Shown here one piece after another: positions 13,434 to 17,197 of a stretch of 64,000 bases of DNA; position 1 is the first letter of the stretch, and every line of letters starts with the position of its first letter. Under the pieces are notes generated by a model. It worked only from the letters and a program-made list of their open reading frames with translations. It ran no database searches and was not told where the DNA came from. Both the position numbers and the translations under genes were made by a program. Origin of the DNA: Escherichia phage vB_EcoM_3HA11; sequence record MN342150, one strand, 5' to 3'.

Positions 13434-15650
13434 ATGATTGAATCATTAACATTTAAAAATGCGGTAGCAACCGTCGCGCCGTCTAACCATGTAATCGTTG
13501 TGGATATCTCCGGTTCCATGTACCGTTCACTTCCTGAAGTTCGCAAGCATCTGAAGGAAAATCTCCCGTCTCTGGTTAAACCAGAAGATACCGTCAGCAT
13601 TCTTTACTTTTCATCCCGTGGTGATTTCGGTACGGTATTCGCTGGCCGTCAGATCAATAGCGCGACCGATCTCAGTGAAATCAATAAACTGATTGACCGC
13701 TTCCTGCAACCGTCCGGTTGTACGGGATTTGTAGAACCTCTGAAGTTGGCTGCTGAAACCGCGTTGAGCCTGAACAAACCTGGTTATGTCAATAACCTGG
13801 CGTTCATGACCGACGGCTATGACAACTGCTGGCGCTCTAATGAAATTCTGGCAGCAGCTGAAGTACTGCCCAAGGCGTTCGATAATATTACATTCATCGA
13901 ATATGGCTGGTACTGTAACCGCGAACTTCTGGCCCTGATGTCCGAGCGTTCTGGCGCGACTCACGTGTTTGCCGAAGGTCAGACTGAATATCAGACCGAA
14001 CTGGAAAACGTACTGAAATCATCTACGCCGAAAGTGGTTGTTGATGTTCCCCTGGTTTACACTCATGCCATCTACGTTGAAAACGGCGTGGCAACTGTGC
14101 TAGCCGTACAACCAGATGAAGAACACCCGATTGGCCACGTCAGCATCCCTGAAAGCGTTTCTCAGCTGTGGGTTGTAAACCCCGACATGATCGACCAGCT
14201 GGATAATCTGGCAGACACCCAGGCGGCATACGTGCTGGCATTCTATGGCGTGTACACCATGGACGCCGATCTGGTCTGGGCCGCGCTGAAGAAGACGGGT
14301 GACGTCCGCTTCATCAAACAATACAGCAACTGTTTCACCAAGCAGGACTATTCCAACATCAAAGTCGATCTGACCCAGGCTATCGTGGATGAAACTCTGC
14401 GCGGCGTAGATGGCATCGATTACAATATGGTTCCAGCTGAAGATGCAACAACCATTGTTGATGTCTTGACCTACCTGGCCGAAGCCGATGTCTCTGTTGT
14501 CACTAAGCATCCACTGTTCTCTTACAACAGTATTGGGCGCGGTACTGTACAGAAAGTTGACGACACCGAAGACAAATTGGCCGAAGAGATTGCGAATGCG
14601 ACTTCTAAAGAAGAGCGTAAAGCCCTGGCGCTCAAACTGGCCGAGCACGAAGATTGGACGCCGGAATTTACTCCGGTTGATGACAAAGGGATTGTCCCAA
14701 TTAGCAATCTGGTCTATAATTCAGAACGTCCTAACATCAGTGTACAAACAGTTCAACACGGAACGGTTGTTGTACCCGAGTTCGTACAGAAGAAATATGA
14801 ACTTCCTGAAGAGTTGGGAACCTGGCGTTATCGCAATTACACCATTGTCAAGGATGGTATCATCAACCTGAAAACAATGCCTATTACTGCGGATTCTCCG
14901 ATTGTTCGGGCTAAGGTGGCACAGGATTTGACTGCCATGGGTGTTCATGTGTTTGGTGGACCGGAAGTCTTCATTGTAAATCTGGAAAGTGTCCCAATGG
15001 TTAACCGCGCTATGACAAAGAATATCAGTGCTGCTGAATTCTTTGCAGACAATGTGCGCCGTGAAGCATTGAAGGCGAAACAAAAAGTTCTGAAATTCTA
15101 TCGTGATGAGCTGGTTGGTAAAGGCAATGCTGCTGGTTTGGCTTCAAAATATGGCAAAGAAGCGGCTGATTTCCTGTCAGCAAACGGCATTCGCGACTAT
15201 GGATTTTCACCGAAGACTTCTTCTGTAGAATCAACTGATGTCTATATGAGTCGTGAATTGAATGTGAAAATCAAAGGCGCATCTTCACTGCCGAGCATCG
15301 CGTCTGTTATCAAAAAACAGACGGACGGTAAAAAACTGAATGTCGCTGATCAGCTGATCGCTAATGCCCTGGCTGAATACAATGCATTCGTTAAATCACC
15401 GATGATCACCAGCGTACCGGAAGAGACTCAGAAAAAGCTGATCGAAAGTTGGATTGGTGATGCAGCAAAAGCAGCTATCAACGAAGTTCGCGCTCTGAAC
15501 AAAACGCTGTCCAAGGTAGTTTATGGGATTGTTGCAGGCCATGGTTGGTTTACCGACCTGGATTTGGAAGAATCCACTATGGATGTGGAAGTTGATGGGG
15601 TGAAATACACCGTCACTGCCGAACTGGCCGAAAAAGAAGTCAAAATCTAA
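13434..15650 (+). CDS. von Willebrand factor type A (vWA) domain protein (739 aa)
   Basis: Start at internal ATG 13434 with AGAAGG RBS. N-terminal MIDAS motif VIVVDISGSM plus downstream S/T and D residues typical of vWA. Confidence 0.7.
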   Translation: MIESLTFKNAVATVAPSNHVIVVDISGSMYRSLPEVRKHLKENLPSLVKPEDTVSILYFSSRGDFGTVFAGRQINSATDLSEINKLIDRFLQPSGCTGFVEPLKLAAETALSLNKPGYVNNLAFMTDGYDNCWRSNEILAAAEVLPKAFDNITFIEYGWYCNRELLALMSERSGATHVFAEGQTEYQTELENVLKSSTPKVVVDVPLVYTHAIYVENGVATVLAVQPDEEHPIGHVSIPESVSQLWVVNPDMIDQLDNLADTQAAYVLAFYGVYTMDADLVWAALKKTGDVRFIKQYSNCFTKQDYSNIKVDLTQAIVDETLRGVDGIDYNMVPAEDATTIVDVLTYLAEADVSVVTKHPLFSYNSIGRGTVQKVDDTEDKLAEEIANATSKEERKALALKLAEHEDWTPEFTPVDDKGIVPISNLVYNSERPNISVQTVQHGTVVVPEFVQKKYELPEELGTWRYRNYTIVKDGIINLKTMPITADSPIVRAKVAQDLTAMGVHVFGGPEVFIVNLESVPMVNRAMTKNISAAEFFADNVRREALKAKQKVLKFYRDELVGKGNAAGLASKYGKEAADFLSANGIRDYGFSPKTSSVESTDVYMSRELNVKIKGASSLPSIASVIKKQTDGKKLNVADQLIANALAEYNAFVKSPMITSVPEETQKKLIESWIGDAAKAAINEVRALNKTLSKVVYGIVAGHGWFTDLDLEESTMDVEVDGVKYTVTAELAEKEVKI

Positions 15651-15658
15651 ATTCATCT

Positions 15659-15687
15659 GGCGGGGAAACCCGCCTTCATTTTGAGAT
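15659..15687 (+). terminator. rho-independent terminator
   Basis: GGCGGGGaaaCCCGCCTTCATTTT after the vWA gene. Confidence 0.6.
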
Positions 15688-16005
15688 ATGCTTATGTCAA
15701 ACAAACCAACTTATGTTGAAGTAATGCGTGTTCTGGCTCAGTACGCTTGTGACAACCTGAACATGGAAACTTGGCGCGACGGTGACCATAAAGAAAAGTT
15801 CGATAATATCGACGACAACATCGATGCGTTGGCTCCTCTTCGGGCCAAGAGCGATCTCGGCGGTGATGATCTTGACATGATTGAACTCATCATGGAAGTT
15901 GAAGAACAATATGATGTTGAAATCAGTGATGAATGGGTAGGCAAACATGGTGATGATCCCACGCTCGGCGAATTAGCTGAATTGGTAGTTGCCCTCCGCA
16001 AATAG
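15688..16005 (+). CDS. acyl carrier protein-like protein (Ser to Asp at the phosphopantetheine site)
   Basis: DLGGDDLDMIELIMEVEEQYDVEISDE aligns with ACP helix II (E. coli AcpP [27 protein letters not shown]), but DSL is DDL. Alternative start 15694. Confidence 0.6.
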   Translation: MLMSNKPTYVEVMRVLAQYACDNLNMETWRDGDHKEKFDNIDDNIDALAPLRAKSDLGGDDLDMIELIMEVEEQYDVEISDEWVGKHGDDPTLGELAELVVALRK

Positions 16006-16009
16006 CAGA

Positions 16010-16044
16010 AGTCCCCAACGGTTTGTTGGGGATTTTTACTTTTA
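16010..16044 (+). terminator. rho-independent terminator
   Basis: CCCCAACggtttgTTGGGGATTTTTACTTTT. Confidence 0.55.
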
Positions 16045-16048
16045 GGGG

Positions 16049-16078
16049 GTTTACTTGAATAAACATTTGCCGTATTAT
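16049..16078 (+). promoter_or_regulatory. early sigma70-type promoter (GTTTAC-N18-TATTAT)
   Basis: T4-early-like -35 GTTTAC and -10 TATTAT, about 55 nt upstream of the 16132 ATG. Confidence 0.45.
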
Positions 16079-16131: not shown

Positions 16132-16371
16132 ATGTCAAATAAAAAAGTAGAAACGACAGTAGAAATTGATCGTAATTGGGGATTACTCCGCGCTAAAGGT
16201 TTTCGTCGTGTTTATATGACCAAGGAAGTTTATGTTCAGCGTCGCGACGTTATTATCAGCAAGAAAGGTAAAGAGTGGGTTGCTGAAGAAGTTGACATTG
16301 AAACGGGTGTCGTGGGCAAAGTAAAAGCGAAGGCGGCTATTTTGTTTGCTCTTCTGAAGCATATCAATTAA
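16132..16371 (+). CDS. hypothetical protein (79 aa)
   Basis: ORF downstream of a promoter/terminator cassette. Confidence 0.5.
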   Translation: MSNKKVETTVEIDRNWGLLRAKGFRRVYMTKEVYVQRRDVIISKKGKEWVAEEVDIETGVVGKVKAKAAILFALLKHIN

Positions 16372-16409
16372 TTCTATAATTTACGGCGGGGTAATCATAC
16401 CCCGCCTAT

Positions 16410-16431
16410 TTGAAATTGCAGGAACTATATC
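16410..16431 (+). promoter_or_regulatory. conserved 5' leader motif TTGAAATTGCAGGAACTATATC(ATG)
   Basis: Near-identical 21-22-nt leader, including the SD, recurs before three unrelated genes (16432, 32720, 45979). Confidence 0.5.
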
Positions 16432-16710
16432 ATGACAGATCAAAGAAGTATTGCTCGTTCGGAAATCAAAGATATTATACAGAGCAAGACCAACGAAACT
16501 CATGCTCAATCCAGAATGTTATCTCGATTTGTTGAAATTAAGTTTGACATTGAAGAGAATAACAATCAGAGAGCGCTGGAGGGGATGTTGGCAATTATCT
16601 TGCGCCATTTCACCGATTCAGCATATGACATGGATGATTTAACTCGTTTGTTGAACGCCCAGAATATCGTTGGGACTTCTGTTCGTGAATTGCTGTTTAA
16701 GTCTGAATGA
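16432..16710 (+). CDS. hypothetical protein (92 aa)
   Basis: ORF preceded by a hairpin and the conserved leader motif. Confidence 0.5.
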   Translation: MTDQRSIARSEIKDIIQSKTNETHAQSRMLSRFVEIKFDIEENNNQRALEGMLAIILRHFTDSAYDMDDLTRLLNAQNIVGTSVRELLFKSE

Positions 16711-16747
16711 ACTAACTAAGGGATAACCCTATATCCCGAGGTGTGTC

Positions 16748-17197
16748 ATGTTTCTTACATCCTTTATTGACTGGATGAATATCATAAATGGCCTGAGGAT
16801 TCCTGTTGGGAATCTCGGGCTTTCTCGTTCTTCTATGCCGCAAATCGATGCCGACAAACAAGAAGATTTTCACAAATATCTTGAAGACAACGGCGTGTCC
16901 ATAGATGCTGCGCAAGTGCCCATCAAAATGCTTCGTCTTACCCAGAACGAAATCAATAAAATGAAGGTCTGGAAGATCATGAAGCAAATCAGAAATAAGA
17001 AACCTATGGGTCGAGTTTGGGTGTCTTCTGACAATTACGTTGTTGACGGTTCTCACCGATTTGTCGCTGCGTTGAACATGGATGGTAAACAGCGCATGAA
17101 GGTCTACAAAGTTGATTTGCCTGCGATGGAATTCGTAAAACTCGCCAAACAATTTCAGGGTGTGCGGTACAGAACGGTCAGCGATACCCGTTTCTGA
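16748..17197 (+). CDS. ParB/Srx-fold (ParB-like nuclease domain) protein
   Basis: LRLTQNEINKMKV ... VWVSSDNYVVDGSHRFVAA fits the ParB N-terminal/sulfiredoxin motif (...DGhHR..A). Confidence 0.5.
   Translation: MFLTSFIDWMNIINGLRIPVGNLGLSRSSMPQIDADKQEDFHKYLEDNGVSIDAAQVPIKMLRLTQNEINKMKVWKIMKQIRNKKPMGRVWVSSDNYVVDGSHRFVAALNMDGKQRMKVYKVDLPAMEFVKLAKQFQGVRYRTVSDTRF

Follow-up and report, generated by a model that had tools for sequence, protein, structure and literature searches.

An acyl carrier protein (ACP) has as its defining feature the serine of a D-S-L motif at the N-terminus of helix II, which in AcpP of Escherichia coli (Pfam family PF00550) is Ser36 and bears the phosphopantetheinyl prosthetic group, and it is with the surface of this same helix that ACPs dock on their client enzymes. 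Ion pairs with AcpS, for instance, are made by the AcpP residues D35, E41 and E47/E48, according to a preprint (bioRxiv 10.1101/2025.01.28.635281). Here we describe a gene in a 64,000-nucleotide stretch of Escherichia phage vB_EcoM_3HA11 (sequence record MN342150; called the window below, by which we mean the whole stretch), whose product is by fold and homology a member of the ACP superfamily and of PHROG 4154 and has an aspartate at the position of this serine. The loss of the serine is solid as an observation, and from it we infer a tentative mechanism: with a probability of about 40%, and by analogy with the cofactor-less form of AcpP, the protein would be a non-modifiable mimic of host AcpP at ACP-docking sites.

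That cofactor-less form, apo-AcpP, is a transient biosynthetic intermediate of the host, and the original work on its inhibition of growth in E. coli is reportedly that of Keating, Carey and Cronan in 1995. According to a review, the inhibition of glycerol-3-phosphate acyltransferase is stronger with apo-ACP than with holo-ACP, and growth stops (PMC3896788). Orphan ACP genes are also known from phages (Vibrio phages helene 12B3 and 1.187.O, Brevundimonas phage Bajun; PHROG 5934). They are, like the gene described here, small stand-alone early or accessory genes without a pathway around them but, unlike the family to which it belongs (D or E throughout), they keep the DSLD serine and might be loaded by the host AcpS. 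A FlashPPI preprint contains a predicted contact between the Bajun ACP and FabZ, which we rejected as direct support for a function of the present protein because the Bajun ACP is of a different family with a normal DSLD motif. Finally, ACP folds occur as subunits stably built into large eukaryotic complexes of organelles, namely ACPM/NDUFAB1 of complex I, NDUEG11 of Euglena, mt-SAF32 of Trypanosoma, ATPTT11 of Tetrahymena and an ACP-like subunit of cytochrome oxidase; no such complex is known for the phage protein. The canonical organellar ACP subunits bind LYR proteins through their acyl-phosphopantetheine.

The DNA around the phage gene is 92-94% identical to that of many phages of Salmonella that belong to the genus Kuttervirus (ViI-like, family Ackermannviridae), and the window is, judging from this similarity, a Kuttervirus genome. 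The gene belongs to a long block of replication-phase genes on the same strand, which comprises those for the sliding clamp, the clamp loader, RegA, a vWA protein, the ACP-like protein, spanins, a helicase, RNase H and a late sigma factor, and it is the only ACP-like open reading frame (ORF) in the 64 kb. The ORF that a first, sequence-only reading of this DNA had delimited (15688..16005, plus strand) is present and gives 105 amino acids when read from its first ATG, but the start more likely lies at the second one:

15694..16005, plus strand: ACP-like coding sequence, 103 amino acids followed by a TAG stop
15688..15693, plus strand: in-frame upstream ATG-CTT, the start in the sequence-only reading, probably not a start codon

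The ATG at 15694 is most likely the real start, because all the more distant homologues begin at the methionine equivalent to Met3 (residues are counted here in the 105-residue numbering), because the annotation of Salmonella phage ISTP3 places the start codon at the second ATG, and because one relative (L009) has AAG where the window has the first ATG. The protein is 100% identical to orf00123 of ISTP3, annotated as "acyl carrier protein".

Similarity to ACPs is evident from profiles and from single sequences. The PP-binding model of Pfam (PF00550) matches residues 55-100 with 30.1 bits, above its gathering score of 20.8 (E 5.9e-7), the profile of PHROG 4154, 'acyl carrier protein', aligns with residues 3-105 over its positions 1-108 of 108 (E 8.5e-56), and phmmer retrieves ACPs of solved structure from the PDB (E 2e-7). 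An hhalign comparison of the family with canonical serine-bearing ACPs reached a probability of 99.2% (E 1.2e-19), residues 46-104 being aligned with AcpP 22-77, and over residues 32-62 of E. coli AcpP the two proteins are 55% identical. In the NCBIfam ACP equivalog models the protein falls far under the cut-off (34 vs 70 bits). The C-terminal alignment to ACPs that had been proposed from the letters alone is thus confirmed, and so is the change from DSL to DDL that came with it: Asp61 falls on the phosphopantetheinyl serine in every alignment, the motif DLGADSLD of Bacillus subtilis ACP being matched by DLGGDDLD in the window, part of a longer stretch reading DLGGD-D-LDMIELIME.

15868-15870, plus strand: GAT codon of Asp61, at the AcpP Ser36 position in the alignments; among the 32 family sequences this site is Glu in 23, Asp in 9 and Ser in 0

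Since the defining serine of a functional carrier is gone, it would be wrong to class the protein as an acyl carrier protein. Compared with AcpP it has Asp or Glu for Ser36 and hence no attachment site for the prosthetic group, and phosphopantetheinylation at the canonical site appears impossible from the alignments; the earlier suggestion of an ACP that cannot be modified therefore holds for this site in 32/32 sequences. The further suggestion that the acidic residue imitates a phosphoserine is in agreement with the conservation of an acid there, but mimicry is only one explanation of that conservation: the Asp or Glu is possibly a phosphoserine mimic, although the data do not require it to be one.

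Structure prediction by AlphaFold2 from a 20-sequence alignment gave a four-helix ACP fold with a predicted local distance difference test (pLDDT) score of 78 and a predicted template-modelling (pTM) score of 0.70. The five models vary much in confidence because the alignment is shallow; an independent BFVD model of the homologue in phage ViI superposes at a template-modelling (TM) score of 0.90. Helices are predicted at residues 9-23, 26-29, 34-39, 41-48, 64-75, 81-87 and 93-103. The N-terminal part, taken for a 50-residue extension when only the sequence was read, is better understood in the light of this model as helix I followed by a loop insertion. In the best reading, residues 9-23 would correspond to ACP helix I and residues 24-53 to an enlarged helix I-II loop, because alignments that span nearly all of an 80-residue ACP require helix I. 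This assignment comes from the predicted structure, since the sequence profiles (hhalign) stop short of the N-terminal 45 residues and do not align them to ACP helix I. The parts of the protein are the following:

15712..15756, plus strand: predicted helix I, residues 9-23; 76% identity between the two allele types described below
15757..15846, plus strand: enlarged helix I-II loop, residues 24-53; variable and rich in insertions and deletions, with short predicted helices at 26-29, 34-39 and 41-48
15853..15912, plus strand: DLGGD-D-LD motif and helix II (the 'recognition helix'), residues 56-75; compared across 32 family sequences
15934..15963, plus strand: family motif W-x-G-x-x-G-D-D-P-T, residues 83-92, with 3 residues more than ACP has between helices III and IV

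The helix-II surface with which ACPs dock on client enzymes is retained. Residues D56, D60, L62, I65, E66, M69 and E72, which correspond to D31, D35, L37, V40, E41, M44 and E47 of AcpP, are invariant in 32/32 family sequences, as is the equivalent of AcpP D56; D63 (AcpP D38) is kept in 31/32, and the equivalent of AcpP E48 is Glu or Asp in 29/32. Relative to AcpP the phage protein has in addition about 25-30 inserted residues in loop I and, before helix IV, the 3-residue insertion with the W/GDDPT motif, whose Trp83 is present in 30/32 sequences. The loop-I insertion is the only fast-evolving segment (46% identity between allele types vs 64-76% elsewhere), and the helix I-II loop region is absent from a form of 90 amino acids found in Serratia phages.

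Absence of the serine is a trait of all the family members examined, none of which has Ser at the site. The sequence-only reading had named two observations that would speak against it, a predicted structure without the four-helix ACP fold and a Ser in homologues of related phages; both were looked for, and neither was made. Asp or Glu occupies it in 19 of 19 database homologues (58-95% identity), and a profile search of 1.84 billion representatives returned only about 10 clusters at 50% identity that match over the full length, all of the D/E type. The full-length form is confined to Ackermannviridae-type genomes. We found the gene in about 270 phage records, as compared with 269 that contain a family-type vWA gene (at least 60% identity), and it is therefore a core gene of the Ackermannviridae. 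The shorter form of Serratia phages 3M, phiMAM1 and 2050H1 reads DLWFD-E-LD at the site; its nearest relatives outside the family are the Vibrio phage ACPs (42% identity, shared DLW-x-D-x-LD), which read DLWMD-S-LD. Because these nearest outside relatives keep DSLD, the most likely ancestor of the lineage is a genuine phage ACP with the serine, the site having probably been lost later.

The gene is under strong purifying selection. The median ratio of nonsynonymous to synonymous substitution rates (dN/dS) is 0.04 in the Asp-type allele (dS 0.69) and 0.15 in the Glu-type alleles (dS 0.92), no stop codon interrupts the gene in 20 loci, and 44 positions are invariant across genera. We infer that the protein carries no acyl groups and works by protein-protein binding, because the ACP fold and the docking surface are kept while the serine is lost, because selection is purifying and because no carrier pathway is annotated. 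Concerning this last point, none of the 241 features annotated in the close relative KE30 is a phosphopantetheinyl transferase (PPTase), acyl-ACP synthetase, ketosynthase or acyltransferase, in an annotation where most genes are 'hypothetical', which sets the phage protein apart from AcpP and its pathway partners; among the immediate neighbours of the gene, no carrier-using enzyme was detected with Pfam, NCBIfam or PHROG.

The elements that surround the gene and bear on its expression are as follows:

13434..15650, plus strand: vWA gene, 738 amino acids, with an N-terminal vWA domain; PHROG 2426 (function not assigned by the profile); probable source of read-through
15659..15682, plus strand: upstream hairpin (GGCGGG GAAA CCCGCC) and run UUCAUUUU, between the vWA and ACP-like genes; left boundary of an apparent cassette
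16007..16043, plus strand: downstream terminator, core stem TCCCCAAC/GTTGGGGA and then UUUUUACUUUU; right boundary of the apparent cassette
16050..16078, plus strand: sigma-70-like promoter match TTTACT-17-TATTAT, serving the next gene (16132..16371); sequence conserved in relatives

As the sequence-only reading had it, the gene is bracketed by terminators, predicted here from sequence and folding: with their U-runs, the upstream hairpin (15659-15674) folds at -17.6 kcal/mol (z -3.3 vs shuffled) and the downstream one (16007-16037) at -19.0 kcal/mol (z -3.5 vs shuffled), far better than the shuffled controls. Both are conserved across genera, and the upstream hairpin was also found by a consensus scan. 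That the gene is monocistronic is not supported, since the upstream U-run ends 11 nucleotides 5' of the ATG at 15694 and no promoter fits between them. With no space for a promoter in this gap, the gene must, as far as the sequence tells, be transcribed by read-through from the vWA gene, and it appears to end its transcription unit because the next gene has a sigma-70-like promoter of its own. Late promoters of the T4 type (TATAAATA) were found neither near the ACP-like gene nor enriched in the window. A trace of expression exists in the form of one ACP-like peptide in the virion mass spectrometry of phage Sajous1.

The stretch between the two hairpins, with the ACP-like gene, behaves like a cassette that can be exchanged. 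In a maane-like Kuttervirus (L019) the sequence shows no difference from the window through the 3' end of the vWA gene and the upstream hairpin and becomes similar again from the downstream terminator; between both hairpins this phage has a divergent Glu-type allele of 107 amino acids, with 62% amino-acid identity to that of the window. The breakpoints of this apparent recombination fall on the two hairpins, both of them conserved (window 15659-16043; compare L019:7866-8460 and L009:7866-8460). Further downstream, positions 16372-16747 form a variable accessory region, in which an ORF of 92 amino acids (16432..16710) is 33-53% identical or absent in otherwise near-identical relatives, and other Kutterviruses have, at the equivalent stretch, a denV-type endonuclease V or an RNA polymerase ADP-ribosylase. 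The ORF that follows (16748-17197, plus strand, 149 amino acids) is 83-100% conserved across genera; it has no Pfam or NCBIfam match and corresponds only to positions 316-467 of the 740-position PHROG 2859, like a stand-alone internal domain.

The vWA gene lies about 40 nucleotides upstream of the ACP-like gene in every full-length relative, while in the Serratia phages three small ORFs stand between the two. Its product has an intact DxSxS motif of the metal-ion-dependent adhesion site (MIDAS), DISGS at 13503-13517, and a sequence search against the PDB found no relative of it. Homologues of the vWA protein are present in 503 phage records, including about 230 of T4-like Slopekvirus type at 48% full-length identity and others from Bacillus and Rhizobium phages; the homologue in phage KP27 has no adjoining ACP-like ORF.

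Our tentative reading of the ACP-like protein as a mimic of AcpP would operate as follows. The protein would be produced in the replication phase through read-through from the vWA gene and, being permanently without cofactor, would occupy the ACP-docking sites of host client proteins in competition with AcpP, and host lipid or lipopolysaccharide (LPS) synthesis, or some other process that depends on ACP, would thereby be damped. PlsB, the glycerol-3-phosphate acyltransferase, would come first among the candidate targets, because it is this activity that apo-ACP inhibits; other acyltransferases and enzymes of fatty-acid synthesis (FAS) would come after it. At the serine site, the Asp or Glu may stand in for the prosthetic-group phosphate, or it may simply stabilise the N-terminus of helix II, and specificity would probably be tuned by the variable loop-I insertion and the W-x-G-x-x-GDDPT motif. 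The functional model is apo-AcpP, to which the phage protein is alike as an ACP that lacks the cofactor and keeps the docking helix; unlike this intermediate of the host, it is dedicated, genetically fixed and virus-encoded and has extra elements, and its inhibitory action is proposed by analogy only. The invariant docking residues, the lack of an annotated carrier pathway and the apo-ACP precedent are all consistent with a decoy. A wider proposal, which we consider doubtful, is that this 'dead' ACP of the Ackermannviridae would be a decoy for the host ACP interaction hub, shutting down or redirecting membrane-lipid or LPS synthesis (or acting on MukBEF or Fe-S assembly), and that serine-less ACP folds would be a recurrent, hitherto overlooked strategy of host takeover.

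Several points weigh against mimicry of AcpP. The literature searched yielded neither a binding partner of the protein nor any experiment on its inhibition of host ACP clients or its toxicity when expressed, and host AcpP is extremely abundant, so that a competitor would need high expression or higher affinity. The ACPs of B. subtilis and of mitochondria outscore enterobacterial AcpP as matches, and the comparison gives no apparent sign of fine-tuned mimicry of the host beyond the universal helix II. The absence of partner enzymes is annotation-based and makes a weak test, because most genes of the annotated relative are 'hypothetical'. Helix N-termini favour acidic residues, and D/E is the commonest replacement in unrelated serine-less ACP-like domains as well (49/60 non-Ser sites, with gaps set aside and a profile that itself favours D/E); the Asp or Glu may reflect nothing but this preference. 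Finally, the gene diverges faster than the rest of its block, and among the phages of one host two alleles are in circulation whose identity is only 62%, a divergence that would be unexpected if the targets were near-invariant host enzymes.

The same rapid divergence is what might be expected of an acidic mimic with some other target, either a nucleic-acid mimic directed against a host nuclease or sensor, as in anti-defence, or an inhibitor of an ACP-binding protein that is not part of lipid metabolism, such as MukB, IscS or SpoT: no other gene of the block evolves as fast as this one, which phages exchange as a cassette, a typical pattern of an arms race, and the neighbours in relatives include genes of host takeover (RNA polymerase ADP-ribosylase, denV). 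MukB and IscS are known ACP partners, with PDB complexes among the Foldseek matches, and the protein is very acidic (pI 4.16, 26 acidic vs 10 basic residues). Canonical AcpP is, however, equally acidic (pI 4.05), and what is conserved is specifically the ACP docking helix rather than a DNA-like array of charges. A PADLOC scan of the protein and its neighbours gave nothing meaningful, no link was found in the literature, and SpoT is a less likely target because it does not bind apo-ACP (PMC3896788), so that we judge a target of this kind improbable. A somewhat better case can be made for a phage-encoded partner, which the protein would serve as adaptor or as structural subunit, its ACP fold providing a small and acidic module for binding, much like the ACP-fold subunits of mitochondrial complexes; in a specific version, the exposed Asp or Glu at the tip of helix II would be the metal ligand of the vWA MIDAS. 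MIDAS sites bind acidic ligand residues, and because the vWA gene adjoins with an intact MIDAS such a partnership is conceivable, the more so as the two genes keep their spacing of about 40 nucleotides in every full-length relative and are probably co-transcribed, and as one peptide of each protein was found in the same Sajous1 virion preparation. The family-specific Trp83 and GDDPT motif also suggest a partner other than the standard ACP clients. Adjacency alone is nevertheless uninformative in a region that is syntenic as a whole across the family, and it is broken by the three small ORFs of the Serratia phages. Moreover, vWA homologues at 48% full-length identity are found in some 230 Slopekvirus-type and other phages without an adjoining ACP-like gene, and a near-identical vWA protein (98%) goes with either of the two ACP-like alleles, only 62% identical to each other. 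Given that vWA is widespread without the ACP-like gene and is paired with either allele, it is unlikely to be an obligate partner, and we hold the explanation by a phage-encoded partner in general to be unlikely, if worth keeping in view.

Two explanations take the ancestral carrier function as their starting point. The gene could be a functionless remnant of a phage ACP gene after the loss of the active serine, given that the defining residue is gone and that no pathway partners are annotated; but the selection analysis (dN/dS 0.04-0.15 with dS 0.7-0.9) effectively refutes this, and neither the 44 positions that stay invariant across genera, nor the presence of the gene in essentially every Ackermannviridae genome (about 270 records vs 269 with vWA), nor the uninterrupted frame in 20 loci is what a decaying gene would leave. 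Alternatively, with the fold and helix II intact, and with room for an unannotated enzyme among the many hypothetical proteins, the protein could still be a carrier whose loading follows a non-canonical chemistry and takes place at a different residue or on the Asp or Glu itself. No other conserved serine lies near the site, however, S55 of the window protein being Lys in most relatives, no PPTase-like or ligase-like gene is annotated, and, to our knowledge, PPTases modify only the serine hydroxyl. We regard such a carrier as highly improbable, and give hardly any credence to a functionless remnant either.

ACP folds without the serine also occur outside the family. We scanned for related loci with a pattern made from full-length members in which D/E was required at the site, so that the matches give no frequency. 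Among them are unrelated viral contigs with genes for small ACP-like proteins in which the serine is replaced by Asp (GADDLD, YDDLD, FDDLD and TDDLS; L023:7890-8183, L025:7875-8159, L026:7878-8141 and L024:1234-1470). One of these viral loci adjoins radical-SAM-like and methyltransferase-like ORFs, and another (L025) is in a jumbo-phage contig of 436 kb. The profile search also led to a bacterial family of 137-160 amino acids, whose members have both a lipoprotein signal peptide (...AAGC) and an ACP-like domain with the serine site occupied by Glu (DLGADELDLVEVVMELEE; L031:6001-6420 and L032:6001-6483). The genes of these exported proteins follow immediately downstream of genes of the ArgJ family, on contigs of 0.78 and 1.17 Mb. 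As exported lipoproteins beside ArgJ genes, these bacterial proteins of the D/E type were set aside as uninformative about the phage protein. Several metagenomic proteins of 200-425 amino acids contain two tandem ACP-like domains with one or both sites non-serine (D, E, G, P, F, W or T; profile-search matches P0039, P0057, P0063, P0067, P0071, P0077, P0086, P0099 and P0112).

Serine-less phage ACPs, a role of phage ACPs in host takeover, pseudo-ACPs and Ackermannviridae transcriptomes did not turn up in our literature search. The gene as such is already known and annotated; that the proteins of this lineage, which spans a whole phage family, are non-modifiable appears to be unreported. Kuttervirus and related Ackermannviridae phages (ViI, CBA120 and many phages of Salmonella, E. 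coli and Klebsiella) have found wide use both in biocontrol and in phage therapy, and in about 270 deposited genomes the label "acyl carrier protein", where the protein is named at all, implies a metabolic function that it cannot perform. If mimicry of AcpP is true, the protein would be a new kind of phage host-takeover protein, directed against one of the most connected proteins of the cell, and a natural, evolution-optimised binder of ACP-docking sites, hence a possible lead for inhibitors of lipid synthesis. It would also offer a handle on the orphan ACP genes of other phages: if a lineage as widespread in the Ackermannviridae as this one dispenses with the cofactor, the role of those genes may be binding rather than carrying.

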